Below, piece after piece: positions 26,724 through 48,100 of a stretch of 64,000 nt of DNA (position 1 is the first letter of the stretch; every line of letters begins with the position of its first letter). This DNA comes from Yuukianura sp. NJ FZ-2021. Lineage: Eukaryota. The notes beneath the pieces are model-generated. The model was not told the DNA's origin. It searched no databases and saw nothing but the letters and a program-made list of their open reading frames with translations. The translations under genes were made by a program, and so were the position numbers. The stretch is from contig JAJCTO010000009.1 in the NCBI GenBank assembly GCA_046563655.1, positions 1,240,001 through 1,304,000 on the forward strand. The letters are read 5' to 3'.

Positions 26724-26798
26724 GTTAGAGCCTCCACTTGGATTAGATCTGATGGTAGGATCCGTGAGTTCGATTCAATCTGCCCCCAAATAATTTTT
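26714..26798 (+). ncRNA. Candidate RNA polymerase III (tRNA-like/VA-like) small RNA
   Basis: 5' GGGCGGA can pair with TCTGCCC (26779-26785), enclosing 72 nt. It has an A-box-like TGGTTAGAGC, a consensus B box GTTCGATTC at 26768-26776 and a T5 at 26794-26798. It does not form a full cloverleaf. Confidence 0.4.
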
Positions 26799-27215
26799 AT
26801 GTTGTTCAAGCGTTTTCGGAACAATACAAACGCAGGCTTGGCGTTTGTCACTGGCATGCCCGAGTTACTTACGCTTACAACACTATGTTAAATTATATTA
26901 CGGAAACGTGTTTGGAGAAAAACGTACGGCATAAACCTGACTTTGAACAACCGTATAAAACAACCGGCAATTTGTGCCACCACCAACAGCTTTGCAGAAA
27001 ACCAAAACTGAATACAGTTTTTGTTTGTTTTTGTCCTTTTTTTCTCTTTTTTTCTCTTTTTTTTTTGGTTTTTTTTTTCGTTTTTTTACTTTTATTTATA
27101 AAAGACACCATGTTTTTTTTTGAATGAGGAGATTAGTTTATTTTTCAAATGTTGAAAAATTTACAACAAGAAAGACTTGAGACAGGGCTAATGAAGATTA
27201 AAAATAAAGTTATTT

Positions 27216-28527: not shown

Positions 28528-28672
28528 TTTAGCACAAAAACACGCACGAGATGTTGCTTTGACGGTTTCCAAATAACGACTGAGCACTATTTTCAAGGGT
28601 TAACGTGTAAACTTTGGGGTAGCACTGCGCACTAGACACGTGTTTACTCGTCGAAATTCAGACGCAGACTGA

Positions 28673-29080
28673 CTAATTGTTGTAAAACAGGCTCCCTTTT
28701 ATAGCTTTTTGCGCCAAATTTTGCAATTTTGCAACAATCTTATGCCTTTTTCGGGCACTTTTAGTAGATTTCTTTGGTTTTCTGCTATTGTCTTTAGAAA
28801 TTTGCAGTTTTCTGCAATTGTTGCAAAGATTTTCGTCTGAATCTGTACTGCTGGACCCACTTTTGGGTAAATTTTGCTTCAAATTTGACACTTTTTTGGG
28901 CCGCGATCGCTTCTTGGCCCTCTTTTTGGGCAACTCCGCGGACATTTTTTGAACAATAGCGGGCGATGATATCGTTTTTGTGGCTAAACTTGCATTGTCG
29001 CACTTGTTTTCGCCATTTTCTGGCGTCACACTGTCACTATTGTTGCTAAAATCAGAGTTTCCTGGTTCGTCAACTTCCAT
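28673..29080 (-). CDS. Small Lys/Arg-rich protein (135 aa) with a CxxC; possibly a DNA-binding core protein
   Basis: ATG-initiated ORF, co-oriented with and between the two capsid genes. It has basic tracts (KKRAKKRSRPKK, RKPKKSTKSARKRHK) and shares a duplicated 5' leader with the major capsid gene. Function is inferred only. Confidence 0.65.
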   Translation of the reverse strand: MEVDEPGNSDFSNNSDSVTPENGENKCDNASLATKTISSPAIVQKMSAELPKKRAKKRSRPKKVSNLKQNLPKSGSSSTDSDENLCNNCRKLQISKDNSRKPKKSTKSARKRHKIVAKLQNLAQKAIKGSLFYNN

Positions 29081-29266
29081 TTTTACACAAAAAATGCACT
29101 AGATGTTGCTTCGACGAGTACAAAGTTGATACTGACGACGTTTTTAAGGGTTTTGGTGTAAATTTTACACTGTTTTGCGCTGTTTTCGTGTTGCTTGGTC
29201 GCAAGTCAGACGTCAACTGAACAGATTTTGTCTTTTGTGGCCGTTAATAACTGGTTTTTGGACAAT

Positions 29267-30337
29267 TTAGGTGGATTTTCTGACGTGAAGAACAAGTTGG
29301 GTTGCGCTGTGTGCTTCAGGAATTGGTGCCAGATTTTCGTCCAAAAGTTGAACGTAAATGGAATTGATCATCGACTGTCCTTTTACCGCAAAATAACGCG
29401 GTACATTGACTTGCAAGTCGACTGGCTTGCCATCCTGATCGCCTTGTGGGAATATTCCAATCAACGGCAGCACCTTGTCTCCAAACTGGGTATATTCCGC
29501 AAGATCGCACACGACAAGGAGATGTTTTGACGTCACTCCAAGGTCAATTTCGGCCTTGGCTGGATTCGTTTGGCTAAATCCCTTGAATGCGGCTCCCATT
29601 GGCAGTCCAAATATTTTTTCCAAAAGTGGCGAGAGGGTCGTAATGTAATTGGCTGTAGATTCTCGGGTGTATTTGAGTACAGCCTCTTCCTCAGAGTACT
29701 TGAATGTAATTTGGAATGTAGCCAAGGCGGCGTTCATGGCTAGAATTAGGCCTCCCACCGTCTTTTCTTTTGGTTCTACCACGGTTGCCAAGTTGACCTT
29801 GTCTTGGAAAATGTGGAGCGTCATGTTAATTGTTGGATCAATTGCGTCAAAAACAGCTTCGGTATATTCATGGCCATGCGTCACTCCATTTGGGAACGTG
29901 TTGGTATCAAAGCCAAACGCTCGGGCATACTCGGCTGTCATGGTAACCAAATGGTCTTTTTCGTCGTTGGTAAGTGAAAAGACCTTGTTTGTGTATGATA
30001 TGACAATTTTTCGGTCAAATTTCTTCAATTCCTTGTTGACATGACCGAAAAACTTTATTATTCCATCCATTTTTGAGATTGTAACCGTCACCTCCAAGTG
30101 CTCGGTTACGTTTATGACATTGTCACCCTCACTGTGGCCAAAAATGTTTCGTTGGGTTTTGGGTGCTGGAGTGTAGTGCATTCCAGAAATGGCAACCTCC
30201 AGTGGTTGCTTCCAGCCATCAAGCACAGGATCCAAATTGGCACGAAACTCGTTTGGTTTATTTTCTGGGTAAAACCTGCTGTTTAAAGCGCTATCCACGA
30301 TAATGTATCGCGAACTGAGTTTAACAACGACGGCCAT
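29267..30337 (-). CDS. Polinton/Maverick minor capsid (penton, single jelly-roll, PX-like), 356 aa
   Basis: N-terminal YIIVDS..NSRFYPENKPNEFRANL...LEVAISGMHY and C-terminal LLVVCDLAE...FGDKVLPLI...PRYFAV...INSIYVQLLDE...LVLHVR match the Polinton penton pattern. The ORF is intact and its first ATG is at 30337. Confidence 0.85.
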   Translation of the reverse strand: MAVVVKLSSRYIIVDSALNSRFYPENKPNEFRANLDPVLDGWKQPLEVAISGMHYTPAPKTQRNIFGHSEGDNVINVTEHLEVTVTISKMDGIIKFFGHVNKELKKFDRKIVISYTNKVFSLTNDEKDHLVTMTAEYARAFGFDTNTFPNGVTHGHEYTEAVFDAIDPTINMTLHIFQDKVNLATVVEPKEKTVGGLILAMNAALATFQITFKYSEEEAVLKYTRESTANYITTLSPLLEKIFGLPMGAAFKGFSQTNPAKAEIDLGVTSKHLLVVCDLAEYTQFGDKVLPLIGIFPQGDQDGKPVDLQVNVPRYFAVKGQSMINSIYVQLLDENLAPIPEAHSATQLVLHVRKST

Positions 30338-30429
30338 TGCTGACGGCGATTTGAACAATAACAAATTAACACTTTCACTTGAACTTTTTTAGGAGAAGGT
30401 AATGTTATCGACGCAGAAGCTAGTGAAAC

Positions 30430-30467
30430 ACTGAGCCGTTTGGGGCAACTTGACGGTCTTATATAGG
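30430..30467 (-). promoter_or_regulatory. TATA box plus initiator upstream of the minor capsid gene
   Basis: Minus strand reads CCTATATAAG (30467-30458), then TCAGT (30434-30430) about 30 nt downstream, ~95 nt before the ATG. Confidence 0.55.
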
Positions 30468-30590
30468 CACAACCAAGGACGTCACCGTAAAAAACTGCAA
30501 AAAAAATGCAGGGGTCGCGTGGCAAGGGGTGAAGACGGGACAGTCGCAATGTAACCACCCACAAGTAAGCATGACCATTTTGTGTATAAA

Positions 30591-31770
30591 CAGTCCGCCC
30601 GGGCGACTTGTCTGAGTTTAAGCAGGAAATGACAACACTATGGCTTGAGGGCGTGCCCAATGTGTGGCAAGTTTTGTCGACCAATCAAATGTCTCCATTT
30701 TCTGAGGCCACGCCCCTTTTTGAAATTGCAAACGTACATTGGCCAGAGTTGGCCACACCCCCGGGTGTAGCGGCAAGTCTCGACCAATCAAATGTCTCCA
30801 TTTCCTCGAGCCACGCCCACTTTTGAAATGCTCAATACTGATTGGCTCAAGAGTCGGGCGGCTAGCCACGCCCCCGAGCGTGACCGGGTCTATTGCCGAG
30901 TGAAGCGTCTGACAGTGGCGCGTCACTCGGCTTGAACTTTGACCTTGGTGTTTTTAGCAAACACAAGTGAAAATTCAAATGGATTCGTACGTGCATATGC
31001 GCGGGCAAGTTGACCGGAAGTGGTTTGCGGTTTGTTCCAACAGGTTAACCGGAAGTGGTTTGCGGTTTCTTTTGGCAGTGGCCGAGTGGTACCCCACTAA
31101 TCCTCTGACCAGCCGAATATACTGCCCATGGGCCATACTTGATCTTCCTGGTCCCGGGATCCCAGAAAAGGGCTCCCGGGACTTGACAATTTCAAAATGC
31201 TCGCTTGACCTTGAAAAAAAGTTGAATGACATTGAACAATTTACACGAAATTGCAAATCAGCGCGCATGACCTGACGCAAATGCACATGCCAATGCAAAT
31301 GGCGCGCATGACCTTGAAAAAAAATTGGAGTGACCTTGAAAAAGTGTGCGTGACCTTGACATTTAAAGTTGGGGTAATCTGGGGAAAGTTGCTTTTTGTT
31401 TTTTAGAAATTTGAATTTTCAATTTAATTTTTTTTTCAATTTTAAAATTTCAAAAAAATTATTTTTTTTTCAAAATATTTTTTACTTGAAAATTTCAAAA
31501 AAAAATCCATTGTTGTCAAATTTACATTGTTGCCAAAATTTCTATTGTTGTATTTTTTTTTGTAAGGGGGGGCGGGGTCACGTGGGGGGGGGGTGGATAT
31601 AGGGGGAAGGGATATATAGTGGGGGGGGGTGGGGGTGCGGAAGTGGGGGGTGACGTCATGTGCAAAACGTTTTTGCGCATGAGCAAAAAACGTCATATGC
31701 AGATGCAATAGCTGATAAGGACGGCGGCCATTTTGAAAAAAGTGCCATTCCCCTACCACTCAGTATAGCT
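30591..31770 (-). repeat. Right terminal inverted repeat of the capsid element
   Basis: Reverse complement of 25535-26723. Confidence 0.97.
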
Positions 31771-32340
31771 ACCATGAATCATGACAACTCACACTTCAAT
31801 CGAACTTCAGTGAAAAACAGACTATTACATTTTCTAAATCAAAATTGAACATTCGGCATTTTTGGCCATTTTTGGATGAAATTTTTGGAAAATACTTTTT
31901 TATATTTCCTACCGCCTTGCCTTGCACATTAATTAGATCATGTCTGAAAACTTCTGCCCAACAATAGTCCGAAATTGTATTTTAGCACAGCTCCACCATA
32001 CCATAAGTGCATAAGTCTAACTACGATTTAGGTTTAACTTAGGGTTGAAACTATACAACAAGGTGTTAAACGTTCTGAATAATGGAATTTATGCCTTTTT
32101 ACCGCTTATACAAAAATTCTTGGTATTCATCAAATAACGGTCCACTTCGTCGTAGTGCATAACTGACTAAATCACACGTTGAAAAACATGTTGTCAGCCT
32201 CCATTCTTGAGCTTAAACTAGAAGTGCCGGTAAAGTGTCAAGCATGCCTTCACTTTAGACGCAAACGATGAGTTCTCATTTTGACACCATGAATCATGAC
32301 AACTCACACTTCAATCGAACTTCAGGGAAAAACCGACTAT
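31771..32340. repeat. 510-bp satellite, ~1.1 monomers separating the two Polinton-like elements
   Basis: Starts with TSD ACCATG and ends with TSD ACTAT. It shares rare variants (GTTCTGAATAATGG, CCATTCTTG, TTTAGACGC) with the monomer just right of 45124. Confidence 0.98.
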
Positions 32341-32954
32341 AGTAGAGAGTAAGGACGTATCTTGCGGCCATTTATTTTTAGCTCAGCCGCGGGGGGTTGT
32401 CGGGCGCAATATTGGGGAGGGGAAACCCCCGCAAAAAATACATTTTATGACAAAATTTCAACATCTAAAGTGACAAAATGTCAAAAATGCCAACAACAAG
32501 AAAGCCTTTTAGTTAATTGTTAATTAATTCTAATCAACAAATACCAATGACTCTGTATTTTTGGAAATGGTATTGGAATGTGACCCCAACCCTTTTCCGG
32601 ATTATGATTTATATTTTTGTACTTCTGAAAACTCCTTCTTCATGTCAGCAACGAAAAAGTTTAAAAAAGTTCTTGTTTGAACTTGTCAATTCCTAGAATT
32701 CTCCAACACCCGAGGCAAAACAAATCCTTTTCTAAAATAGGATTTGTATTTCAGGCTTCAGCTGTCCTTTTAAGTCAAAGAGTTTTTAAAAAATTGTTCA
32801 GTTCATTCCCAACATTTGACCTATTCACTAGTCGAAAATCAAGACACTTAAATTTAAACTCAATTAAAGCACACAGTAGCATATACTATACAAAATCAGC
32901 ACTTACAACAATACGGACTACTACAATAAGGTAAGCAAAACTCGCCAAAGGTTA

Positions 32955-33792
32955 TTAACGTTTTACTAAACAATACAGAACGTAGTTATAAAGTAGCGGA
33001 AGCTACTTTAAGACCTAACTGTCTATCTGTCCGTCTGTCCGTAAAGCATTTAAGCGTTATTTGAATTAACGTTTTACTAAACAATACAGAACGTAGTTAT
33101 AAAGTAGCGGAAGCTACTTTAAGACCTAACTGTCTGTCTGTCCGTCTGTCCGTAAAGAATTTAAGCGTTATTTGAATTAACTGCTTACTAAACAATACAG
33201 AACATAGTTATAAAGTAGCGGAAGCTACTTTAAGACCTAACTGTCTGTCTGTCCGTCTGTCCGTAAGACATTTAAGCGTTTTCTCAATTAAGTTTTTACT
33301 AAACACAGAACTTAGTTAACAAGTAGCGAAAGCTACGTTAAAGCCTTATGTGTCTGTCTGTCCATCTGTCAATAAAGCATTTAAACGTTATTTTAATTAC
33401 GTTTTTACTAAACAATACAGAACGTGGCTATGAAGTAGCGAAAGCTACTTTACGGTCCTGCCTATCTGTTTGTACGTAAAACGTTTCTTCAATGAAAACT
33501 CAGTCATTAAGTGGCGGAAGCTTTATAACATTGTCTCTGTGCCTGTCCATCTGTTCGTAAGGCACCTAAGCAGTTTTCTTTATACTAATCAGCACTAAAC
33601 ACAGTCATTAAGTAGCGAAAGCTGCTTAATTGTCTTATTTATCCGTCTGCCCATCAAGCATGTATTTCAACAAAAACAAAGGTTGTTATTAAGTAGCGGA
33701 AGCTACTTTACGGTGTTCTATTGTAGTTGCCTATCTGTTCGTAAAGCGTTCTGCTAGTGAAAACGCGGTGATTAAGTAGCGGAAGCTACTTA
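32955..33792 (+). repeat. Tandem array (~9 units, 111 bp decaying to ~80 bp) with hairpin AAGTAGC-GGAA/GAAA-GCTACTT and a GTCY microsatellite
   Basis: Units start at 32955, 33066 and 33177. Hairpins lie near 32990, 33101, 33212, 33321, 33432, 33509, 33610, 33691 and 33774. Confidence 0.9.
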
Positions 33793-33873
33793 TCAAATGC
33801 CCGAGAACGATATTAGCATTTTTAAAGTATTTGACTATTTATTAAGGTTAGAACCAAATGTTAGATTTTTTTT

Positions 33874-33904
33874 TACTAACTATTTTATTTTAACTATTTC
33901 TTAG
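33874..33904 (+). other. Branch point and 3' splice site of a 5'-UTR intron of pPolB
   Basis: TACTAAC at 33874-33880, a T-rich tract, then TTAG ending at 33904, one base before the ATG at 33906. Candidate donors are AG|GTAAGC at 32931 or AG|GTTAGA at 33847. Confidence 0.6.
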
Positions 33905-33905
33905 G

Positions 33906-36900
33906 ATGTCGAAGCGTTCAGCACCTCCAGTCGCTGGCTCCTCAAAGCAAATTTGTGTCAGGAATCACGAGTGTCTCATTTGTGGCGTAAAGTTCTATAA
34001 GAAAAAAGACTTGGCAGAACATGTTAGTAGCCATGACGAGGACTTTCGTCAGTTACATTTTGCTAAACTGGCGGATTTTGAGTGTCCAGTTTGTTTTGCT
34101 GGATTCTTCGCTCAAGAAGAGTTGGACCACCACTTCATGGAGCGTCATGATCAAGATTTCCAGGAACCTGCCTCTCTTCCAGTAAACCGTGAAATCCTGC
34201 AAGTATATCGAGAACTTTTGTGTCCACCTTGTGGTTTATCGTTCAACTGTCGAGACAAACTTCAAGAACACTTCCACAATGTGCATCCAGACTTTTATAG
34301 TGCACAAACTGGAGGACTTCGGCCGTCGGCTATAGAACTAATTTTGGTGAAGCCTGTTCTTACTTCCCTTAATATGTGTACAAAGTACTTGGCAGAGTTT
34401 GAGAAATTCCAGTGTGGTAGCGGATTCGATGAGCGTGACTTTTTCAACAGCGTACAACAATCGTCGTTTGATAACATTGAAAATGATCTCAAAAAGTGGA
34501 AGAATGCGAGAGTTTTCTTTTCCATGAAATGTCGCTTCACAAAAACACATGCAGATGGCAGTATTGAAACCAAGGACGCAGGCTTTACTTCTTACCGCCA
34601 TCTTGTCTTCACCCCAGCGTCATTACCTCGTGTGTGGTCAATCATGTGTCATGAAATGTCTGATCAGATTGAAGACTTTACCCATGAAGGAAGCGGTTGG
34701 GATCTAGATTATATCTCAGAATTCAGGTTCGTGACAGCCAAGTACCAGTTCACTAAAGTGGGATCTTATATTGAGACACCGTTTCCACTATCTGAACACA
34801 AAAAGTTGCTGCTTAACATCGACAACAGTGAAATATCTGTTACAAATTCGCACCACAAGTGCTTTCTTTGGTCTATTCTCGCTCATGACAAAGTCGCTGG
34901 CGTTCCTGCTGGTAGAAACAACCATCGCGCCCGAATCGATAAGCTAGTGAAAACATATGCGCCGCATATTCACAAGGTCAACACCACGGGGCTTCACTTT
35001 CCAATCACTCTTGAGCAAATCCCGAAATTTGAAACGCTCAATCCTAACATTTCAGTTACCGTCCTTGGTTATGACATGGATGTACCATCTGCTCCAGAAA
35101 GACGAGAAGGAAAGAAATCAAAAATGGAGGACTTGGAACTATTCAAATATATCCAAAGCAACATATCAGTTCTCTACAATTCAAAACAAGTGAAGGACAT
35201 CCATGTCGATTTAATGTGCCTCATGAAAGGGAATAACGCTCACTTTATGTTGATTCGAAATCTCGAAGCGCTAATGCGACCACCAAATGACGGCAGACCA
35301 AAACACATTTGTCGCAACTGTCTCTCCAATTTTCGCGAAGTCCGTAGCCTTGAACTGCATAAGCCATTTTGTGCTGCCCTTGGTCTGCAGAAAGTCACTT
35401 ATCCAAAAGAAAATGAAAACGAGCTTTACTTTAACAAGTGGGCTAGAACTCAGCCAGTACCTTTTCGATTCTACGCTGATTTTGAAGCCTTTCTGCCAAA
35501 ATTTCATGCCTCAGCCGAACAAGAAGACGAGCGTCGAAAACTTAAGGAACGAGTTACCGGGATCAAAAGTAAGCCAGCAGAAAATCATCGTTGTACGCAT
35601 ACACACAAGCCCTGCGGCTATGCATGGGTCTGTGTGGATTTTGAGGAAGCGCCGCCATGGCGAATACTATCACGCCACAGAAGACGATGAAGACATTGCT
35701 GCACACTTCATGGAAAGCATCCTTCGTTTCTCCAAAACCCTTGGCGAAGAAGTGGACGAGTATGAGCGAATTGCTCCTGATATGCTGGAAAGAAACATGA
35801 CCCCTAGACAGAGAGAAGAGAAAAAGACTGCTCGTTTCTGCTGTTTCTGTGAGAAGCCTTTCGAGAAGAAGGACTGGAAAGTGCGTCATCATTCTCATCT
35901 GCCTCCCTTCAACTATATCGGCATGGCTCATAGAGACTGTAACCTTCAAGCACAGATCAAGAAGGAATTCCCCGTATTCCTCCACAACTTCTCATCATAC
36001 GACGTGCACTTCTTGATTCAGGCCATGGGAAAGCTTAAGGAAGATAAAATCATCAGTCACGTTGAAGTGATCCCAAAGAGTAGCGAGAAGTATTTGTGTG
36101 TCACCGTAGCACCGGAATGTTCGGGGGAAGATTACGTAGAAGAGGAGATCACACGAGAAAACGTGAGGCGACGGGAAAAATACAAGCTCCGTTTTACCGA
36201 CAGTCTCGGCTTCACTCTGAAATCACTGGACAAGCTGGTTGAAGTCATGCGCAAAGACCCAAATGCCAAATTTGACATAACTAGACAGGAGTTTCAGAAA
36301 GAAGTTGAAAATGGTGCCAACATTGATCTTCTCTTCAAGAAGGGCGCCTATCCATATTCACTGATGACGTCATGTCAAGACTTTGAGATGACAAGTTTAC
36401 CTCCGAAAGAAGCGTTCTTCAATGACATGACCGAAACACCAATTCAAGACGCTGTTTACAATCATGCGAAGGAGGTTTGGGAGAGTTTTAACATTCAAAA
36501 CATGGGGGAGTGGCACGACCTCTACGTTCGGCTGGACGTGTCGCTTCTAGCCGATGTGATGGAAGGTGTTCGGAAGCTTATGATGGACAGTTACGGGCTG
36601 GAACTGGGCCATTACTTTTCCCTGCCAATGATGGCGATGGACTGTGTTCTCAAGAAGTCTGGAGTTGTGCTGGAGCTTATTACGGACCCGACGATGCACT
36701 GCTGGATTGAGCATGGAATCAGAGGCGGCTATGTCAGCGTTGGCTCCAGGCGTTCTGCGAAAGCTAACAATCCATACATGGGAGATGAATACGATCCAGA
36801 CAAACCGATCTATTACATTCTCTACATTGACGCGAATAATTTATATGGTAAAGCCATGAGTCTTGCGCTACCCCTTGGACAATTTAAATGGCTCTCAGAA

Positions 36901-38250
36901 GAAGAAATCCAGATAATTTCCAGCAATATCGACGAGTTTGTTGCCGAAACAGAAAGGAAGAAAGTCATTGGCTACATGCTAGAGGTTGACTTGGAGATTG
37001 ATGCTAGTCTACATGAAAAATTGAACGACTATCCTCCAGCCCCAGTTACAAGAACTGTTCCAATGGAAGAGCTCTCTGCCCATCAGCGTAAACTCTTGGA
37101 AGACCTCAAGTCAGGACCTGGACTTTTCAAAGTCAAAAAGCTGGTTGCCGATTTAAACAATAAGAAAAACTACATTCTACATCAGGAGGTACTCAAAGAG
37201 TACCTCAAAATGGGCGCCAAGGTTACAAAAGTCCACCGGGGAATCTCCTTTATCCAAGGTCCATGGATGAAGCAATTCATCGATTTCAATACTGAAATGA
37301 GGAAGAAGGCAACGAGCGATTTCGCCAAGGACTTTTGGAAGTTGCTCAACAACTCGGCATTTGGGAAAACTATCGAACAAGTGAGAAAACGACAAAACGT
37401 TCGGGTTGTTACGACAATGGAGAAGGCGCTGTACTACAACAAGAAGCCCACTGTCCAAAATGTCATCCCAATCAATGAAACGACTTGCATTTTCATGATG
37501 AAGCGGCTGCAAGTCACACTCAATAAACCAATCTTCACAGGAGTCACCATCTTGGACTTGGCTAAGAGTATCATGTATCGACATCACAGCGCCGGAATGC
37601 AGGCACAATATGGCGACAAGTGCCAGCTGATTTACACAGATACAGGTACGTTACCTATTTATAAATTACTTTACATGTTATGTATTGCGAGTTTTTAACT
37701 TAATTTTATTTTAGATTCCTTCATCTATCAGATTCGAACGGATGACGTCTATCAGGACATGCTACAACGCAAGGATCTCTACGATATGAGTGAATACCCA
37801 GAAAATCATCCGCTGTTTGGAAGATTTCACGATTTGACAAATAAGAAAGTCCTTGGAAAATTCAAGGACGAGGCTGCTGGATCGGTGATCACTCATGTCT
37901 ACTGCCCGCGACCAAAGATGTATACCATTCGATCCTTAAAAGTAGCTCAAGTCGGAGGAGAATTCCAAAAGAAGCCGGATGGTGAATGGCTATTGAAGGA
38001 TGAGTATACCAAGAAGGCAAAGGGAATCACAAAAACAGCTGTTAACGGTCAGGTCAAGTATGAAGACTATGAGCGAGTCCTCAAGGAGAATGTGCAGACT
38101 ATGGTTACCATGCGTGGTTTCAGAAGCGTCGAGCACCGAATTTTCACAGAAGTCACCATGAAGAAGGCTCTCAACGGATTGGACACCAAGAGATATGCTG
38201 TAGATAGTGTAAACACTTTAGCTTTTGGACATAAAGATATTCCAAAATAA
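33906..38250 (+). pseudogene. polB: Protein-primed family B DNA polymerase (Polinton pPolB), left copy; 2-bp deletion near 35645; intron 37646-37714
   Basis: Three N-terminal C2H2 fingers, then EGSGW and KCFLWSILAH...HFMLI. Exonuclease motifs are YADFE, HNFSSYD and YVRLD, followed by KGAYPY and GIRGG. Polymerase motifs are YIDANNLYG, KLLNNSAFGK and YTDT|DS (after splicing), then GKFKDE, RPKMY and KAKGI. It reconstructs to 1425 aa. Confidence 0.95.
37646..37714 (+). other. 69-nt GT-AG spliceosomal intron in pPolB (left copy)
   Basis: ACAG|GTACGT...TTTTATTTTAG|ATTCC. Removal restores YTDTDSFIY and fuses to the 163-aa downstream ORF. The intron is AT-rich and contains an in-frame stop. Confidence 0.93.
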
Positions 38251-38516
38251 AAGTTTTTTATTTTATATTTTATATTTTAAGTCAAAATAAATTTAAATTT
38301 AAAAATTGGTTTTAAAATACTGGTATAATAAAAAATTTTTGTCTCTCAAAAAAAAAAAAAAGTCATTTCTGAAGTTGAAGTTTAGTTGTCACTTGCTCTT
38401 TGATCTATGAGTGTATACTCTCGCTGTGGAAACTTATTTTCACGTTTAGACATTGCTAAACGTCACGAAAAAAACTTGTTGAAAATGTCTCTCTGAAGCA
38501 TTGCTCTCGAGTTCTC

Positions 38517-38561
38517 CCACCACCACCACCACCACCACCACCACAACGCCTTGGGATTCCA

Positions 38562-38593
<32 letters not shown>

Positions 38594-38851
38594 ACCGCCG
38601 CCGCCACCGCCGCCACCACCGCCGCCGAGTATAGGCTTGCTCTTGAGCTATGTGAGGAGGAGGAGGAGGAGTATGGGCATGCTCTTGAGCTTTCTGAGGA
38701 TGAGGAGGAGTATGGGCATGCTCTTGAGCTTTCTGAGGATGAGGAGGAGTATAGGCATGCTTTTGAACTGTTTGAGGAAGGGAGGAGGAGGAGGATCCCA
38801 AGGCATTGTGGCGGCGGCGGCGGTGGCGGTGGCGGTGGCGGCGGTGGCGGT

Positions 38852-38882
<31 letters not shown>

Positions 38883-38946
38883 GCGGCGGTGGTGGTGGTG
38901 GTGGTGGAATCCCAAGGCGTTGTGGTGGTGGTGGTGGTGGTGGTGG
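38517..38946. repeat. Low-complexity centre of the palindrome: (CCA/CCG)n, ~4 x 39-bp repeats, (GGC/GGT)n
   Basis: The unpaired spacer ~38627-38808 consists of GAGGAGGAGTATGGGCATGCTCTTGAGCTTTCTGAGGAT-type units. It is flanked by complementary trinucleotide tracts of unequal length. Confidence 0.9.
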
Positions 38947-39212
38947 GAGAACTCGAGAGCAATGCTTCAGAGAGACATTTTCAACAAGTTTTTTTCGTGA
39001 CGTTTAGCAATGTCTAAACGTGAAAATAAGTTTCCACAGCGAGAGTATACACTCATAGATCAAAGAGCAAGTGACAACTAAACTTCAACTTCAGAAATGA
39101 CTTTTTTTTTTTTTTGAGAGACAAAAATTTTTTATTATACCAGTATTTTAAAACCAATTTTTAAATTTAAATTTATTTTGACTTAAAATATAAAATATAA
39201 AATAAAAAACTT

Positions 39213-42200
39213 TTATTTTGGAATATCTTTATGTCCAAAAGCTAAAGTGTTTACACTATCTACAGCATATCTCTTGGTGTCCAATCCGTTGAGAGCCTTC
39301 TTCATGGTGACTTCTGTGAAAATTCGGTGCTCGACGCTTCTGAAACCACGCATGGTAACCATAGTCTGCACATTCTCCTTGAGGACTCGCTCATAGTCTT
39401 CATACTTGACCTGACCGTTAACAGCTGTTTTTGTGATTCCCTTTGCCTTCTTGGTATACTCATCCTTCAATAGCCATTCACCATCCGGCTTCTTTTGGAA
39501 TTCTCCTCCGACTTGAGCTACTTTTAAGGATCGAATGGTATACATCTTTGGTCGCGGGCAGTAGACATGAGTGATCACCGATCCAGCAGCCTCGTCCTTG
39601 AATTTTCCAAGGACTTTCTTATTTGTCAAATCGTGAAATCTTCCAAACAGCGGATGATTTTCTGGGTATTCACTCATATCGTAGAGATCCTTGCGTTGTA
39701 GCATGTCCTGATAGACGTCATCCGTTCGAATCTGATAGATGAAGGAATCTAAAATAAAATTAAGTTAAAAACTCGCAATACATAACATGTAAAGTAATTT
39801 ATAAATAGGTAACGTACCTGTATCTGTGTAAATCAGCTGGCACTTGTCGCCATATTGTGCCTGCATTCCGGCGCTGTGATGTCGATACATGATACTCTTA
39901 GCCAAGTCCAAGATGGTGACTCCTGTGAAGATTGGTTTATTGAGTGTGACTTGCAGCCGCTTCATCATGAAAATGCAAGTCGTTTCATTGATTGGGATGA
40001 CATTTTGGACAGTGGGCTTCTTGTTGTAGTACAGCGCCTTCTCCATTGTCGTAACAACCCGAACGTTTTGTCGTTTTCTCACTTGTTCGATAGTTTTCCC
40101 AAATGCCGAGTTGTTGAGCAACTTCCAAAAGTCCTTGGCGAAATCGCTCGTTGCCTTCTTCCTCATTTCAGTATTGAAATCGATGAATTGCTTCATCCAT
40201 GGACCTTGGATAAAGGAGATTCCCCGGTGGACTTTTGTAACCTTGGCGCCCATTTTGAGGTACTCTTTGAGTACCTCCTGATGTAGAATGTAGTTTTTCT
40301 TATTGTTTAAATCGGCAACCAGCTTTTTGACTTTGAAAAGTCCAGGTCCTGACTTGAGGTCTTCCAAGAGTTTACGCTGATGGGCAGAGAGCTCTTCCAT
40401 TGGAACAGTTCTTGTAACTGGGGCTGGAGGATAGTCGTTCAATTTTTCATGTAGACTAGCATCAATCTCCAAGTCAACCTCTAGCATGTAGCCAATGACT
40501 TTCTTCCTTTCTGTTTCGGCAACAAACTCGTCGATATTGCTGGAAATTATCTGGATTTCTTCTTCTGAGAGCCATTTAAATTGTCCAAGGGGTAGCGCAA
40601 GACTCATGGCTTTACCATATAAATTATTCGCGTCAATGTAGAGAATGTAATAGATCGGTTTGTCTGGATCGTATTCATCTCCCATGTATGGATTGTTAGC
40701 TTTCGCAGAACGCCTGGAGCCAACGCTGACATAGCCGCCTCTGATTCCATGCTCAATCCAGCAGTGCATCGTCGGGTCCGTAATAAGCTCCAGCACAACT
40801 CCAGACTTCTTGAGAACACAGTCCATCGCCATCATTGGCAGGGAAAAATAATGGCCCAGTTCCAGCCCGTAACTGTCCATCATAAGCTTCCGAACACCTT
40901 CCATCACATCGGCTAGAAGCGACACGTCCAGCCGAACGTAGAGGTCGTGCCACTCCCCCATGTTTTGAATGTTAAAACTCTCCCAAACCTCCTTCGCATG
41001 ATTGTAAACAGCGTCTTGAATTGGTGTTTCGGTCATGTCATTGAAGAACGCTTCTTTCGGAGGTAAACTTGTCATCTCAAAGTCTTGACATGACGTCATC
41101 AGTGAATATGGATAGGCGCCCTTCTTGAAGAGAAGATCAATGTTGGCACCATTTTCAACTTCTTTCTGAAACTCCTGTCTAGTTATGTCAAATTTGGCAT
41201 TTGGGTCTTTGCGCATGACTTCAACCAGCTTGTCCAGTGATTTCAGAGTGAAGCCGAGACTGTCGGTAAAACGGAGCTTGTATTTTTCCCGTCGCCTCAC
41301 GTTTTCTCGTGTGATCTCCTCTTCTACGTAATCTTCCCCCGAACATTCCGGTGCTACGGTGACACACAAATACTTCTCGCTACTCTTTGGGATCACTTCA
41401 ACGTGACTGATGATTTTATCTTCCTTAAGCTTTCCCATGGCCTGAATCAAGAAGTGCACGTCGTATGATGAGAAGTTGTGGAGGAATACGGGGAATTCCT
41501 TCTTGATCTGTGCTTGAAGGTTACAGTCTCTATGAGCCATGCCGATATAGTTGAAGGGAGGCAGATGAGAATGATGACGCACTTTCCAGTCCTTCTTCTC
41601 AAAAGCTTCTCACAGAAACAACAGAAACGAGCAGTCTTTTTCTCTTCTCTCTGTCTAGGGGTCATGTTTCTTTCCAACATATCAGGAGCAATTCGCTCAT
41701 ACTCGTCCACTTCTTCGCCAAGGGTTTTGGAGAAACGAAGGATACTCTCCATGAAGTGTGCAGCAATGTCTTCATCGTCTTCTGTGGCGTGATAGTATTC
41801 GCCATGGCGGCGCTTCCCCTCAAAATCCACACAGACCCATGCATAGCCGCAGGGCTTGTGTGTATGCGTACAACGATGATTTTCTGCTGGCTTACTTTTG
41901 ATCCCGGTAACTCGTTCCTTAAGTTTTCGACGCTCGTCTTCTTGTTCGGCTGAGGCATGAAATTTTGGCAGAAAGGCTTCAAAATCAGCGTAGAATCGAA
42001 AAGGTACTGGCTGAGTTCTAGCCCACTTGTTAAAGTAAAGCTCGTTTTCATTTTCTTTTGGATAAGTGACTTTCTGCAGACCAAGGGCAGCACAAAATGG
42101 CTTATGCAGTTCAAGGCTACGGACTTCGCGAAAATTGGAGAGACAGTTGCGACAAATGTGTTTTGGTCTGCCGTCATTTGGTGGTCGCATTAGCGCTTCG

Positions 42201-43558
42201 AGATTTCGAATCAACATAAAGTGAGCGTTATTCCCTTTCATGAGGCACATTAAATCGACATGGATGTCCTTCACTTGTTTTGAATTGTAGAGAACTGATA
42301 TGTTGCTTTGGATATATTTGAATAGTTCCAAGTCCTCCATTTTTGATTTCTTTCCTTCTCGTCTTTCTGGAGCAGATGGTACATCCATGTCATAACCAAG
42401 GACGGTAACTGAAATGTTAGGATTGAGCGTTTCAAATTTCGGGATTTGCTCAAGAGTGATTGGAAAGTGAAGCCCCGTGGTGTTGACCTTGTGAATATGC
42501 GGCGCATATGTTTTCACTAGCTTATCGATTCGGGCGCGATGGTTGTTTCTACCAGCAGGAACGCCAGCGACTTTGTCATGAGCGAGAATAGACCAAAGAA
42601 AGCACTTGTGGTGCGAATTTGTAACAGATATTTCACTGTTGTCGATGTTAAGCAGCAACTTTTTGTGTTCAGATAGTGGAAACGGTGTCTCAATATAAGA
42701 TCCCACTTTAGTGAACTGGTACTTGGCTGTCACGAACCTGAATTCTGAGATATAATCTAGATCCCAACCGCTTCCTTCATGGGTAAAGTCTTCAATCTGA
42801 TCAGACATTTCATGACACATGATTGACCACACACGAGGTAATGACGCTGGGGTGAAGACAAGATGGCGGTAAGAAGTAAAGCCTGCGTCCTTGGTTTCAA
42901 TACTGCCATCTGCATGTGTTTTTGTGAAGCGACATTTCATGGAAAAGAAAACTCTCGCATTCTTCCACTTTTTGAGATCATTTTCAATGTTATCAAACGA
43001 CGATTGTTGTACGCTGTTGAAAAAGTCACGCTCATCGAATCCGCTACCACACTGGAATTTCTCAAACTCTGCCAAGTACTTTGTACACATATTAAGGGAA
43101 GTAAGAACAGGCTTCACCAAAATTAGTTCTATAGCCGACGGCCGAAGTCCTCCAGTTTGTGCACTATAAAAGTCTGGATGCACATTGTGGAAGTGTTCTT
43201 GAAGTTTGTCTCGACAGTTGAACGATAAACCACAAGGTGGACACAAAAGTTCTCGATATACTTGCAGGATTTCACGGTTTACTGGAAGAGAGGCAGGTTC
43301 CTGGAAATCTTGATCATGACGCTCCATGAAGTGGTGGTCCAACTCTTCTTGAGCGAAGAATCCAGCAAAACAAACTGGACACTCAAAATCCGCCAGTTTA
43401 GCAAAATGTAACTGACGAAAGTCCTCGTCATGGCTACTAACATGTTCTGCCAAGTCTTTTTTCTTATAGAACTTTACGCCACAAATGAGACACTCGTGAT
43501 TCCTGACACAAATTTGCTTTGAGGAGCCAGCGACTGGAGGTGCTGAACGCTTCGACAT
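39213..43558 (-). pseudogene. polB: Protein-primed family B DNA polymerase, right copy; 1-bp deletion near 41604; intron 39749-39817
   Basis: Mirror of the left copy. It is intact where the left copy is frameshifted (GAGGGGAAG) but reads AAGCTTTTGAG instead of AAGCCTTTCGAG. It reconstructs to the same 1425 aa. Confidence 0.95.
39749..39817 (-). other. 69-nt GT-AG intron in pPolB (right copy)
   Basis: Reverse complement of 37646-37714. Confidence 0.93.
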
Positions 43559-43671
43559 CCTAAGAAATAGTTAAAATAAAATAGTTAGTAAAAAAAAATC
43601 TAACATTTGGTTCTAACCTTAATAAATAGTCAAATACTTTAAAAATGCTAATATCGTTCTCGGGCATTTGA

Positions 43672-44510
43672 TAAGTAGCTTCCGCTACTTAATCACCGCG
43701 TTTTCACTAGCAGAACGCTTTACGAACAGATAGGCAACTACAATAGAACACCGTAAAGTAGCTTCCGCTACTTAATAACAACCTTTGTTTTTGTTGAAAT
43801 ACATGCTTGATGGGCAGACGGATAAATAAGACAATTAAGCAGCTTTCGCTACTTAATGACTGTGTTTAGTGCTGATTAGTATAAAGAAAAACTGCTTAGG
43901 TGCCTTACGAACAGATGGACAGGCACAGAGACAATGTTATAAAGCTTCCGCCACTTAATGACTGAGTTTTCATTGAAGAAACGTTTTACGTACAAACAGA
44001 TAGGCAGGACCGTAAAGTAGCTTTCGCTACTTCATAGCCACGTTCTGTATTGTTTAGTAAAAACGTAATTAAAATAACGTTTAAATGCTTTATTGACAGA
44101 TGGACAGACAGACACATAAGGCTTTAACGTAGCTTTCGCTACTTGTTAACTAAGTTCTGTGTTTAGTAAAAACTTAATTGAGAAAACGCTTAAATGTCTT
44201 ACGGACAGACGGACAGACAGACAGTTAGGTCTTAAAGTAGCTTCCGCTACTTTATAACTATGTTCTGTATTGTTTAGTAAGCAGTTAATTCAAATAACGC
44301 TTAAATTCTTTACGGACAGACGGACAGACAGACAGTTAGGTCTTAAAGTAGCTTCCGCTACTTTATAACTACGTTCTGTATTGTTTAGTAAAACGTTAAT
44401 TCAAATAACGCTTAAATGCTTTACGGACAGACGGACAGATAGACAGTTAGGTCTTAAAGTAGCTTCCGCTACTTTATAACTACGTTCTGTATTGTTTAGT
44501 AAAACGTTAA
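43672..44510 (-). repeat. Mirror copy of the hairpin/GTCY tandem array
   Basis: Reverse complement of 32955-33792. Confidence 0.9.
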
Positions 44511-45124
44511 TAACCTTTGGCGAGTTTTGCTTACCTTATTGTAGTAGTCCGTATTGTTGTAAGTGCTGATTTTGTATAGTATATGCTACTGTGTGCTTTA
44601 ATTGAGTTTAAATTTAAGTGTCTTGATTTTCGACTAGTGAATAGGTCAAATGTTGGGAATGAACTGAACAATTTTTTAAAAACTCTTTGACTTAAAAGGA
44701 CAGCTGAAGCCTGAAATACAAATCCTATTTTAGAAAAGGATTTGTTTTGCCTCGGGTGTTGGAGAATTCTAGGAATTGACAAGTTCAAACAAGAACTTTT
44801 TTAAACTTTTTCGTTGCTGACATGAAGAAGGAGTTTTCAGAAGTACAAAAATATAAATCATAATCCGGAAAAGGGTTGGGGTCACATTCCAATACCATTT
44901 CCAAAAATACAGAGTCATTGGTATTTGTTGATTAGAATTAATTAACAATTAACTAAAAGGCTTTCTTGTTGTTGGCATTTTTGACATTTTGTCACTTTAG
45001 ATGTTGAAATTTTGTCATAAAATGTATTTTTTGCGGGGGTTTCCCCTCCCCAATATTGCGCCCGACAACCCCCCGCGGCTGAGCTAAAAATAAATGGCCG
45101 CAAGATCCGATCCTAGCCTCTACT

Positions 45125-48100
45125 ACTATTACATTTTCTAAATCAAAATTGAACATTCAGCATTTTTGGCCATTTTTGGATAAAATTTTTGGAAAATACT
45201 TTTTAATATTTTCTACCGACTTGCACATTAAATAGATCATGTCTGAAAACTTCTGCCCAACAATAGTCCGAAATTGTATTTTAGCACAGCTCCACCATAC
45301 CATAAGTGCATAAGTCTAACTACGATTTAGGTTTAACTTAGGGTTGAAACTATACAACAAGGTGTTAAACGTTCTGAATAATGGAATTTATGCCTTTTTA
45401 CCGCTTATACAAAAATTCTTGGTATTCATCAAATAACGGTCCACTTCGTCGTAGTGCATAACTGACTAAATCACACGTTGAAAAACATGTTGTCAGCCTC
45501 CATTCTTGAGCTTAAACTAGAAGTGCCGGTAAAGTGTCAAGCGTGCCTTCACTTTAGACGCAAACGATGAGTTCTCATTTTGACACCATGAATCATGACA
45601 ACTCACACTTCAATCGAACTTCAGGGAAAAACCGACTATTACATTTTCTAAATCAAAATTGAACATTCAGCATTTTTGGCCATTTTTGGATAAAATTTTT
45701 GGAAAATACTTTTTAATATTTTCTACCGACTTGCACATTAAATAGATCATGTCTGAAAACTTCTGCCCAACAATAGTCCGAAATTGTATTTTAGCACAGC
45801 TCCACCATACCACAAGTGCATAAGTCTAACTATTTACGATTTAGGTTTAACTTAGGGTTGAAACTATACAACAAGGTGTTAAACGTTCTGAAAAATGGAA
45901 TTTATGCCTTTTTACCGCTCATACCAAAATTCTTGGTATTCATCAAATAACGGTCCACTTCGTCGTAGTGCATAACTGACCAAATCACACGTTGAAAAAC
46001 ATGTTGTCAGCGTCCATCCTTGAGCTCAAACTAGAAGTGCCGGTAAAGTGTCAAGCATGCCTTCACTTCAGATGCAACCCATGAGTTTTCATTTTGACAT
46101 CATAAATCATGGTAACTCACACGTCGATGGAACTTCTGGGAAAAACCGACCCTTACATTTTCTAAATCAAAAATGAACATTCAGCATTTTTGGCCATTTC
46201 TGGATACAATTTTTGGAAAATACTTTTTTATATTTCCTACCAACTTGCACATTAAATAGATCATGGCTGAAAACTTCTGCCCAACAATAGTCCGAAATTG
46301 TATTTTAGCCCAGCTCCACCATATCACAAGTGCATAAGTCTAACTACGATTTAGGTTAAACTTAGGGTTGAAACTATACAACACGGTGTTAAACGTTGTG
46401 AAAAATGGAACTTATGCCTTGTTACCGCTCATACCAAAATTCTTGGTATTCATCAAATAACGGTCCACTTCGTCGTAATGCATAACTGACTAAATCACAC
46501 GTTGAAAAACATGTTGTCAGCGTCCATCCTTGAGCTCAAACTAGAAGTGCCGGTGAAGTGTCAAGCATGCCTTCACTTCAGATGCAACCCATGAGTTTTC
46601 ACTTTGACATCATAAATCATGATAACTCACACGTCGATGGAACTTCTGGGAAAAACCGACCCTTACATTTTCTAAATCAAAAATGAACATTCAGCATTTT
46701 TGGCCATTTCTGGATACAATTTTTGGAAAATACTTTTTTATATTTCCTACCAACTTGCACATTAAATAGATCATGTCTGAAAACTTCTGCCCAACAATAG
46801 TCCGAAATTGTATTTTAGCACAGCTCCACCATACCACAAGTGCATAAGTCTAACTATTTACGATTTAGGTTTAACTTAGGGTTGAAACTATACAACAAGG
46901 TGTTAAACGTTCTGAAAAATGGAATTTATGCCTTTTTACCGCTCATACCAAAATTCTTGGTATTCATCAAATAACGGTCCACTTCGTCGTAGTGCATAAC
47001 TGACCAAATCACACGTTGAAAAACATGTTGTCAGCGTCCATCCTTGAGCTCAAACTAGAAGTGCCGGTAAAGTGTCAAGCATGCCTTCACTTCAGATGCA
47101 ACCCATGAGTTTTCACTTTGACATCATAAATCATGGTAACTCACACGTCGATGGAACTTCTGGGAAAAACCGACCCTTACATTTTCTAAATCAAAAATGA
47201 ACATTCAGCATTTTTGGCCATTTCTGGATACAATTTTTGGAAAATACTTTTTTATATTTCCTACCAACTTGCACATTAAATAGATCATGGCTGAAAACTT
47301 CTGCCCAACAATAGTCCGAAATTGTATTTTAGCCCAGCTCCACCATATCACAAGTGCATAAGTCTAACTACGATTTAGGTTAAACTTAGGGTTGAAACTA
47401 TACAACACGGTGTTAAACGTTGTGAAAAATGGAACTTATGCCTTGTTACCGCTCATACCAAAATTCTTGGTATTCATCAAATAACGGTCCACTTCGTCGT
47501 AATGCATAACTGACTAAATCACACGTTGAAAAACATGTTGTCAGCGTCCATCCTTGAGCTCAAACTAGAAGTGCCGGTGAAGTGTCAAGCATGCCTTCAC
47601 TTCAGATGCAACCCATGAGTTTTCACTTTGACATCATAAATCATGATAACTCACACGTCGATGGAACTTCTGGGAAAAACCGACCCTTACATTTTCTAAA
47701 TCAAAAATGAACATTCAGCATTTTTGGCCATTTCTGGATACAATTTTTGGAAAATACTTTTTTATATTTCCTACCAACTTGCACATTAAATAGATCATGT
47801 CTGAAAACTTCTGCCCAACAATAGTCCGAAATTGTATTTTAGCCCAGCTCCACCATATCACAAGTGCATAAGTCTAACTACGATTTAGGTTAAACTTAGG
47901 GTTGAAACTATACAACAACGTGTCAAACGTTGTGAAAAATGGAATTTATGCCTTGTTACCGCTCATACCAAAATTCTTGGTATTCATCAAATAACGGTCC
48001 ACTTCGTCGTAATGCATAACTGACTAAATCACACGTTGAAAAACATGTTGTCAGCGTCCATCCTTGAGCTCAAACTAGAAGTGCCGGTGAAGTGTCAAGC

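Follow-up and report, generated by a model that had tools for sequence, protein, structure and literature searches.

A palindrome with two convergent protein-primed polymerase genes in Yuukianura sp.: a probable member of a small lineage of polymerase-only Polinton derivatives

A 12.8-kb palindrome inserted in satellite DNA

The window analyzed here is the whole 64,000-nucleotide stretch of contig JAJCTO010000009.1 (assembly GCA_046563655.1, Yuukianura sp. NJ FZ-2021) from 1,240,001 to 1,304,000; unprefixed positions refer to it. Positions 32341-45124 (12,784 bp) form a palindrome lying in a satellite, with the following features:

31771..32340, + strand: 510-bp satellite forming the left flank; its phase agrees with that of the right flank
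32336..32340, + strand: left copy of the target site duplication (TSD), ACTAT, in a satellite monomer (junction comparison)
32341..38627, + strand: left arm, giant terminal inverted repeat (TIR) of 6287 bp (self-BLAST)
32341..32361, + strand: left tip (genome match of the tip sequence)
32954..33452, + strand: 4.5 tandem copies of a 111-bp unit that precede the polymerase gene and are shared with full-length relatives
33906..38250, + strand: polymerase gene, left copy
37646..37714, + strand: GT-AG intron of 69 nt that interrupts polymerase motif C; the palindrome on C3 lacks this intron
38407..38627, + strand: dead 5' stub of a zinc-finger/packaging-ATPase gene, terminating in a CCA/CCG linker
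38628..38792, + strand: unique centre, 39-bp acidic repeats
38793..38799, + strand: turn point GGATCCC, start of the inverted arm
38793..39056, - strand: right-arm dead ATPase stub, with a slightly longer linker
38839..45124, - strand: right arm, 6286 bp (BLAST), extending inward to 38793 through the low-complexity linker
39213..43558, - strand: right copy of the polymerase gene, pointing toward the left one; intron at 39749-39817
44013..44511, - strand: 111-bp tandem repeat, mirror copy
45104..45124, - strand: right tip (genome match of the tip sequence)
45125..45129, + strand: right TSD copy
45125..45700, + strand: right flank, same satellite on the + strand, restarting 5 bp before the end of the left flank

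The arms of about 6.3 kb announced in the original prediction were borne out by self-BLAST, in which 32340-38627 was paired with 45125-38839 at 99.6% identity over 6292 columns (6.29 kb). Arm against arm, the segment 32360-38510 differed by six substitutions and three indel events in 6154 columns. The predicted spacer of about 180 bp was a fair estimate, since the centre measures between 165 bp (38628-38792) and 211 bp, according to how the low-complexity ends of the arms are drawn.

The element begins with AGTAG and ends with CTACT, and the junctions read …CCGACTAT followed by AGTAG on the left and CTACT followed by ACTATTAC on the right. The 5-bp TSD (ACTAT) was found to be clean on both sides, as had been claimed, and this motif occurs a single time in undisturbed satellite monomers. 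The insertion is in register in the 510-bp satellite: in monomer coordinates the left flank stops at 821 and the right one begins at 817. The unchanged orientation of the satellite was confirmed by 106 of 106 matches in the window on the + strand. A candidate empty-site joint (32335-45125) in runs X2 and X4 was rejected, as it came from other satellite monomers.

The tips had been described as non-identical, and they do differ in 6 of the 21 outermost nucleotides. The outermost 17 nt of the left tip were found elsewhere in the genome solely at both ends of a second palindrome, C3:13248785-13259198 (three matches), and the outermost 19 nt of the right tip equal the tips of the full-length Polintons C3:7749332-7763437 and C5:72703 (four matches). 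The AG…CT ends and the TSD fall within the Polinton/Maverick norms (a TSD of 5-8 bp in PMC10748475), whereas the 6.29-kb arms and the total of 12,784 bp fall outside those for TIR (100-1,500 bp) and element length (13-25 kb).

The polymerase encoded by both arms

In each arm lies one gene for a phi29-like protein-primed polymerase (pPolB) that includes terminal-protein-like and vOTU-like domains; of the packaging-ATPase gene, only the frameshifted 5' stub is left. The claim of two convergent pPolB genes and little else was upheld: both genes are present, and a tblastn search (E≤1e-3) with the integrase, protease, capsid, ATPase-core and other parent proteins gave no further match in 32341-45124. 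The polymerase frame is broken once in each arm (left near 35644, right near 41606). Both copies contain a 69-nt GT-AG intron, AATAAA-type signals lie 3' of the stop codon, and contigs from the DNA runs X2 and X3 showed a mirror-image 69-nt skip (39748-39818). A possible protein across the centre (ORF 38483-39007) was discarded as an accident of the low-complexity repeats; it has no start codon and half of it is mirror arm.

The polymerase was identified from homologues and folds. The best fold match was the phi29 polymerase (E=2e-8), and 1504 homologues were retrieved at E≤1e-20, many of them labelled PF03175, a family that went unmatched when the ORF pieces were scanned directly with Pfam. 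Residues 154-281 matched a Y-family little-finger/PAD fold (Z 8.6) and residues 292-451 a viral OTU fold (Z 6.6), Z values of 6-8 for these N-terminal folds being middling on the tool's own scale; C318 and H445 were invariant in 31 of 31 rows. With this reservation on Z, the domain order fits the TP-vOTU-exonuclease-palm arrangement of Polinton pPolB, the same architecture being given in bioRxiv 10.1101/2024.03.18.585575. Pfam and PHROGs scans left the polymerase, capsid and protease pieces unnamed. No match was obtained in a PDB sequence search or, with the N-terminal model, in Foldseek at E≤0.001, and an IMG/VR scan with the polymerase gave no confirmed locus.

Relatives of the palindrome in the same genome

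The arms correspond to C3:7749332-7763437 from its polymerase end as far as the ATPase linker. They derive from that end of a resident Polinton family whose full-length members measure 14-17 kb. The palindrome shares its ends, TSD length and sequence with this full-length family, which has the missing integrase; integrase frames of intact appearance are present in the genome. Among the 20 family elements with both ends, 17 have a 5-bp TSD and 18 have left and right tips identical over 21 nt, despite the existence of 18 distinct tips. The inverted arms are about 100 bp long in full-length copies and reach 1.3-3.8 kb in reduced ones, where they engulf genes.

The original prediction had proposed looking for copies with the same central junction and other TSDs, and one was found on another contig at C3:13248785-13259198 (10.4 kb, TSD TTAGC). 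Its arms are 99.5% identical to each other and about 91.5% identical to those of the window palindrome over the gene (8.5% divergence). Among close polymerase matches, with 108 of 146 candidates scored, these were the two clean polymerase-only palindromes, together with a larger rearranged relative on C10.

The window and C3 palindromes have in common the linker-to-repeat junction, the GGATCCC turn, which is not present in the repeat of the donor family, one tip type and the loss of the first two polymerase introns. A frameshift in the ATPase stub was found in four of four palindrome arms and in none of the four other copies covering the site. The centre is a chimera of the arm stub and 39-bp acidic repeats akin to the centre of a separate, ATPase-bearing palindromic family, and that of the C3 palindrome is related yet different. 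A hetero-joined ancestor (polymerase arm plus ATPase-family arm) was absent from the genome matches inspected.

The existence of this diverged second copy points to a parasite that copies itself at the expense of full-size relatives and not to a one-off accident. Of the two readings first offered, an integrated snap-back genome or a minimal self-replicating pPolB replicon, a one-off snap-back is disfavored because the 8.5%-diverged copy has the same derived centre; the replicon would fit better, as one unable to integrate alone.

Selection and mosaicism of the polymerase gene

The dN/dS between the window and C3 palindromes was 0.083 over 948 codons, and 0.086 (217 codons) and 0.034 (263 codons) in the regions where both are mutually closest among the six and five sequences compared, respectively. 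All of the coding substitutions between arms were synonymous, six of six in the window and three of three on C3 (0.3^9, approximately 2e-5).

The gene is a mosaic, identical in both window arms, with the 5' part and the last exon nearer to full-length copies and the middle nearer to the C3 palindrome. The last-exon tree grouped the window palindrome with full-length copies (85/98); a palindrome clade was not recovered in the trees, and the middle-region tree gave no resolved grouping. Two patches of the window arms are not yet equalised, the tip and a synonymous run at 35715-35862. Because of this recombination, the low dN/dS may reflect import from helpers, the candidate sources including the intron-poor, full-length-type element C1:4610061-4629260. 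One to three polymerase frameshifts were found in each of the four palindrome arms, so no palindrome copy is intact as assembled.

Proposed origin and propagation of the palindrome

In our estimation (probability of about 0.6), the window palindrome belongs, as an integrated copy, to a small lineage of palindromic Polinton derivatives that have only the polymerase. A polymerase-end fragment may have been joined, in the ATPase linker, to repeats of another non-autonomous family, and would then have folded back at a short inverted sequence with its own 5' arm as the fill-in template. Such a fill-in would extend the terminal repeat over the whole gene. A polymerase that includes a terminal-protein domain and a vOTU-like protease could prime at either AGTAG end. 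During propagation, the displaced strand would snap into 6.3 kb of duplex that already has an origin, making a second-strand step unneeded. The same fold-back could homogenise the arms by carrying changes from one into the other, and pieces gained by recombination with full-length helpers would in this way reach both. Integration may be provided in trans by the rve integrase of full-length relatives, the presumed helpers, leaving the 5-bp TSD of the family. A bolder version, which we hold to be doubtful, is that of a Polinton turning into a capsid-less, plasmid-like replicon that persists as a lineage, equalises its arms, swaps patches and tips with helpers and is perhaps the replication unit among reduced polymerase, ATPase and capsid elements that together would resemble a segmented Polinton.

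The alternative that survives best, although rather unlikely, is that of repeated dead-on-arrival snap-backs, produced by separate template switches at a CCA/CCG and GGA-rich hot spot of a non-palindromic, ATPase-defective parent, with a single helper integration and no replication as a palindrome. Terminal-repeat expansion is common in the family and the junctions sit in low-complexity repeats; the polymerase-armed palindrome on C10 has a junction different from that of the window, and the trees and the frameshifts in all arms are also compatible with this origin. However, no non-palindromic copy with the stub-plus-repeat junction was found among 66 centre matches (24 of 24 candidates scored), and the 7-nt turn relic is common to both palindromes. 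Moreover, a lone fold-back would generate identical arms, whereas the observed arms show synonymous-only differences and tips of two element types. The shared derived centre and these differences argue against one-step formation from a helper with arms identical at birth, although an unsampled parent may exist. A hairpin-RNA silencing locus kept by the host was considered as well.

A multipartite Polinton-type virus, in which polymerase palindromes, ATPase-bearing and capsid-only elements would complement one another and be co-packaged, seems improbable. AGTAG-ended elements do hold complementary gene subsets (polymerase only; ATPase with one or two other ORFs), as integrated copies, capsid-only 6.2-kb elements are present in at least five places, 25535-31770 among them, and PMC8363768 describes a pPolB virus whose several segments have related termini. 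By contrast, full-length members of the family persist and no AGTAG-ended integrase-only or capsid-only element was found among the loci read. The capsid-only neighbor at 25535-31770 was rejected for now as a partner segment, since its tips differ, its TSD measures 6 bp and its capsid is only 25-30% identical to that of the family.

An artefact of the assembly or the library, either a chimera made by fold-back or a mis-join collapsing a longer interior, is the least credible reading: no contig from four DNA runs (at most two samples, the best possibly the source; short contigs, centre repeats skipped) spans the element or its centre, short-run indels in all arms resemble consensus errors, and other giant inverted structures exist in the assembly, C9:979353-1032180 among them without a TSD at its visible edges, but the original view that this is no simple fold-back read artefact is sustained by the TSD, the satellite phase, two different tips that each match other elements exactly, the synonymous-only arm differences, a second copy with a related but different centre, and related palindromes on C10 (20 kb) and C1 (6.9 kb) with an insertion in a single arm past which the mirror resumes, which a fold-back read could not produce.

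Comparison with known systems

Like Polintons/Mavericks, as described by Barreat and Katzourakis in 2021 (PMC8097293) and Jeong et al. in 2023 (PMC10748475), the palindrome has pPolB, AG…CT ends and a TSD within 5-8 bp. Its arms reach 6.3 kb, in contrast to terminal repeats of 46-1,447 bp (vertebrates) or 100-1,500 bp, and its polymerase has introns, while the vertebrate Mavericks are reported there as intronless. It differs also in having the polymerase twice and no integrase, protease or capsid genes, but it shares with Polintons its descent from a full-length element, present in the same genome, with integrase, ATPase and capsid-type genes.

The palindrome resembles snap-back or copy-back defective genomes, as one parental end is followed by its inverted copy and the interior is deleted. 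As in the adenovirus snap-back and panhandle forms, a single strand would form a long stem with a duplex origin, and the arms would be equalised in cis; panhandle end repair of adenovirus minichromosomes was reportedly described by Wang et al. in 1991. Unlike these transient by-products, it is integrated with a TSD and appears to persist as a lineage, with purifying selection acting on its replicase.

In models of Polinton replication, the fold-back ("racket" or panhandle) step still awaits direct evidence, as PMC11886824 states for panhandle structures. Gene-wide repeats that are 99.5% alike within a copy and 8.5% apart between copies would be a natural record of arm-to-arm copying. The palindromes also predict an easily assayed molecule in host DNA, a protein-capped linear form that snaps back instantly. 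Since short reads would collapse such palindromes, or these would be discarded as chimeras, they may be widely overlooked.

The Drosophila Vesanto virus and bidnaviruses likewise have pPolB on a small TIR-bounded unit and related termini on others, but according to PMC8363768 their segments are non-integrated and of 3.3-5.8 kb, whereas the Polinton derivatives found here are known as integrated copies. Partial Polintons of C. elegans, with pPolB and TIR and no integrase (bioRxiv 10.1101/2024.01.15.575659), are similar to the palindrome, and integration in trans has been suggested for an integrase-less integrated PLV (10.1101/2023.10.16.562556); these are remnants or capsid-bearing, and no mirror-image polymerase pair is described in the available portions of either source. 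A literature search, with most subscription papers, Repbase and supplements outside its scope, found no description of a polymerase-bearing Polinton palindrome.

Finally, pGKL-type and mitochondrial linear plasmids and transpovirons are, like the palindrome, capsid-less and have terminal repeats and a pPolB including a terminal protein (bioRxiv 10.1101/2024.03.18.585575 and 10.64898/2026.10.13.758929). The palindrome differs in being integrated in an animal chromosome, with a spliceosomal intron, a sole gene and a repeat that is the entire element; the mobile-replicase pPolB examples of the latter source are, as stated there, consistently paired with DDE integrases, which it lacks. Cytoplasmic linear plasmids have been proposed, in these two sources, as polinton descendants by loss of the capsid module. 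The palindromes may show a possible path for such a transition, in which a virus that integrates would become a replicon with nothing but a polymerase.

Structure and Insertion of the Palindrome

The palindrome is real as sequence. In a self-comparison of the window (C9:1240001-1304000; C numbers denote contigs of the 98.7-Mb, 22-contig genome searched and L numbers loci read from it, all chosen for Polinton matches), 32340-38627 pairs in inverted orientation with 45125-38839 at 99.6% over 6292 columns. Excluding the tip and a CCA/CCG tract, the arms differ by 6 substitutions and 3 indel events in 6154 columns. The element spans 12,784 bp, starts with AGTAG, ends with CTACT and has a 165-bp centre with 39-bp repeats. 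ACTAT is found on each side of it and once per undisturbed satellite monomer, the two satellite flanks overlap on the monomer by exactly 5 bp, and all 106 satellite matches in the window lie on the same strand. The giant near-identical arms, the clean 5-bp TSD and the unchanged satellite orientation of the original prediction were therefore borne out. So was its content of two convergent pPolB genes and little else, since homology search of the element detected no integrase, protease, capsid or ATPase core.

Polymerase genes of the palindrome:
33906-38250, + strand, left arm
43558-39213, - strand, right arm

Matches to the left 17-nt tip elsewhere are confined to the two ends of a second palindrome on C3; those to the right 19-nt tip are confined to full-length copies. 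Folding of the central 711 nt gives -351 kcal/mol, a value reached by 0 of 20 shuffles and expected of any such mirror. Separately, 276-bp sub-repeat variants break up the 510-bp satellite at 7650-8202, 58653-59205 and 59439-59991.

The same satellite holds another 6.2-kb element (25535-31770) with 1.2-kb inverted repeats (98.2%), a 6-bp TSD (ACCATG) and different tips. Its three genes, silent in Pfam and PHROGs scans, are presumably, by motif, a minor capsid, a basic protein and a major capsid. Close copies lie on C4, C5, C11 and at C9:1231627-1237949, and at C3:6789746-6803860 (L065, L038, L039) lies a related mirror-image capsid gene pair, one of its arms interrupted by 6.6 kb of inserted sequence.

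The Polymerase Gene

A Pfam scan of the arm gene returned C2H2 fingers only. The open piece 35692-37644 retrieved 1504 proteins at E<=1e-20, many labelled PF03175, with 37-45% identity among the best 120, and the top fold match of its modeled product (mean pLDDT 76.7) was phi29 polymerase, with nine chains at E<=0.001. For the N-terminal open piece, modeled at pLDDT 70.7, residues 154-281 resemble a Y-family little-finger fold (Z 8.6, rmsd 2.8, 105 aligned) and residues 292-451 viral OTU proteases (Z 6.6, rmsd 3.8); C318 and H445 are invariant in 31 alignment rows. Krupovic and colleagues (10.1101/2024.03.18.585575) give the order terminal protein-vOTU-exonuclease-palm for polinton polymerases and link the terminal protein to the little-finger fold. 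The modeled folds follow this order, so the window polymerase bears a predicted terminal-protein domain as its own primer. Each arm carries a 69-nt GT-AG intron within motif C and a single frame break (near 35644 on the left, near 41606 on the right).

The intron count among close copies is three in the full-length C3 and C5 elements, one in the window (37646-37714) and zero in the second palindrome (compared with L011/L012, L014, L016, L033); such exact loss suggests copying from spliced RNA. In a family member of 8.2 kb, one inverted arm contains a 262-aa ORF (L058:1523-2308; C1:132523-133308) with a polymerase-like N-terminus followed by unrelated sequence, which we take to resemble an F-box.

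Parent Family and Source of the Centre

Full-length relatives (C3:7749332-7763437, 14.1 kb; C5:72703 onward; 16.7-16.9-kb copies on C3 and C6) encode the polymerase, a zinc-finger ATPase (Pox_A32) and an rve integrase between inverted repeats of ~100-160 bp; their further genes we read, by motif, as protease and capsids. The window arms correspond to their polymerase end, cut within the low-complexity linker of the ATPase gene. The 165-bp centre is absent from these parents; the 39-bp repeats in it are matched by the central sequence of another, ATPase-bearing palindromic family. Integrase matches in the genome at E<=1e-60 number 15, several of them stop-free.

The donors of the central repeats (C4:8283652-8291569, L026-L027; C1:4515863-4532506, L080, L022, L023; L024-L025; L028-L029) have 3.8-4.8-kb arms, each with a Pox_A32-type ATPase and a 299-aa unknown gene, and share AGTAG ends and a 5-bp TSD with the window palindrome. 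At least nine elements of 5-7 kb (L050, L051, L053, L054, L056, L057, L059, L061, L033/L052) have 1.1-2.4-kb inverted arms and carry, besides a zinc-finger ATPase gene, an unknown one of 460 aa. Arm length forms a continuum, from 0.1 kb in full-length copies through 1.1-2.4 kb in ATPase elements, some engulfing a gene, to 3.8, 5.1 and 6.3 kb; a reduced Polinton of 7,149 bp with 2,402-bp arms is present in the same genome.

Among 20 elements bounded on both sides by AGTAG, the TSD was 5 bp in 17, 6 bp in one and lacking in two; published accounts give 5-8 bp for Polintons (PMC10748475), and a 6-bp TSD with repeats of 46-1,447 bp for vertebrate Mavericks (PMC8097293). Tips compared across 20 family members (window 32341 and 45124; L011, L012, L015, L016, L026, L050-L061 and others) are constant at AGTAG and then hypervariable, with 18 distinct 21-mers that look like shuffled 4-nt blocks. 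Of the left tips, 17 have G at position 9, all 20 at position 13 and 19 at position 17, and both ends of a single element nearly always match. This hypervariability could represent turnover of origin specificity.

A Second Polymerase-Only Palindrome

The second palindrome, C3:13248785-13259198, is 10.4 kb long and intronless; its arms are 99.5% alike and ~91.5% identical to the window palindrome over the gene. It is the one copy found with the same central junction and a different TSD (TTAGC vs ACTAT), the kind of copy that the original prediction had proposed to count. An extra base shifts the frame of the ATPase stub in 4/4 arms of the two palindromes and in 0/4 of the other copies covering the site. 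Both also enter the acidic repeats at the same junction and turn at GGATCCC, a point from which the sequence of the donor family differs. Beyond the turn, the C3 palindrome repeats its own left arm once more, which indicates later re-templating of its centre.

Polymerase dN/dS between the two palindromes was 0.083 (948 codons), and 0.086 and 0.034 where they are nearest neighbors; these ratios show purifying selection on the palindrome polymerase, a signal that recombination could have imported. The first 900 columns of the window gene are 91-97% identical to full-length copies vs 85-93% to the C3 palindrome, the middle is nearer the C3 palindrome, and the last exon has dS of 0.38-0.43 to full-length copies vs 1.0 to the C3 palindrome. 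By these alignments the gene is a mosaic, and since both arms carry the same one, arm-to-arm copying would have followed recombination. Arm-to-arm coding substitutions are all synonymous (6/6 in the window, five in 35715-35862, and 3/3 in C3), a pattern not expected from either sequencing error or neutral decay. The six coding indels (two window, four C3), unaccompanied by any non-synonymous substitution, would be better explained by consensus errors or slippage than by decay in the host.

Proposed Mechanism and Alternatives

The best explanation, to which we assign a probability of about 60%, is a palindromic, self-priming, polymerase-only Polinton lineage. Protein-primed replication proceeds by strand displacement. 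The palindrome would have arisen by fold-back fill-in of a polymerase-end fragment and propagated by self-primed copying in which the displaced strand snaps back, and a helper integrase from full-length relatives would integrate it. Wang et al. (1991) reportedly found adenovirus minichromosome ends repaired via inverted repeats, and Kapitonov and Jurka (2006) are said to have proposed a fold-back model for Polintons. Panhandles are a proposed means of re-initiating replication and of making the two ends homologous again, direct evidence being described as lacking (PMC11886824). The original prediction of a snap-back genome or minimal pPolB replicon is partly supported: the second, diverged copy with its shared centre speaks against a one-off snap-back genome and makes a minimal replicon the better fit, though one that has no integrase and would integrate only via a helper.

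Against a lineage count the absence of an intact polymerase copy among the palindromes as assembled, the finding of just two clean copies among 108 scored of 146 candidates, and trees of 9 and 7 rows in which no palindrome clade was resolved. So does the chance that recombination brought in the signal of selection, given an intron-poor full-length-type copy at C1:4610061-4629260 in which the diagnostic junction is deleted. Repeated dead-end snap-backs are an unlikely but serious alternative, and a segment of a multipartite virus is improbable. Least probable of all is an assembly or library artefact: among contigs of four runs none spans the window palindrome, in a comparison that skipped the centre repeats, but the TSD and satellite phase, two informative tips, synonymous arm differences and a related centre in the second copy are strong indirect evidence against it. 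The original prediction had cited the TSD, the satellite orientation and the tips against a fold-back read. A further argument against an artefact comes from relatives on C10 and C1 in which a single arm is interrupted, by insertions of 20 kb and 6.9 kb, and the mirror resumes beyond them at 99-100%; those palindromes were therefore chromosomal before the insertions. The window palindrome is probably not an artefact.

Larger mirrors were also observed. C10:442764-495267 (L017-L021, L030, L031) is a rearranged palindrome in which polymerase arms of the window family enclose another Polinton in mirror form, with arms of 11.5 kb; its 20-kb element, confined to the right arm, has a 5-bp duplication. 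At C9:979353-1032180 (L067, L040-L044, L068), a near-complete Polinton of another family is mirrored head to head over ~53 kb; a capsid-only element is nested in both arms, and no TSD was seen at the visible edges.

Comparison With Known Systems

In the literature searched, with subscription papers, Repbase and supplements outside its scope, no account of a Polinton palindrome with a polymerase gene was found. Nothing specific came from PMC6431247 and PMC9863843. Other sources describe integrase-less pPolB-end remnants in C. elegans (10.1101/2024.01.15.575659), an integrase-less integrated PLV (10.1101/2023.10.16.562556), a segmented analogue, Vesanto virus (PMC8363768), and mobile pPolB modules consistently paired with an integrase (10.64898/2026.10.13.758929), which the window palindrome lacks. 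It differs from an autonomous Polinton in integrase, capsid genes and repeat length, and is a non-autonomous Polinton derivative. It is like a snap-back defective genome, but retains its replicase, and like a linear plasmid, but one whose integrase would be borrowed.
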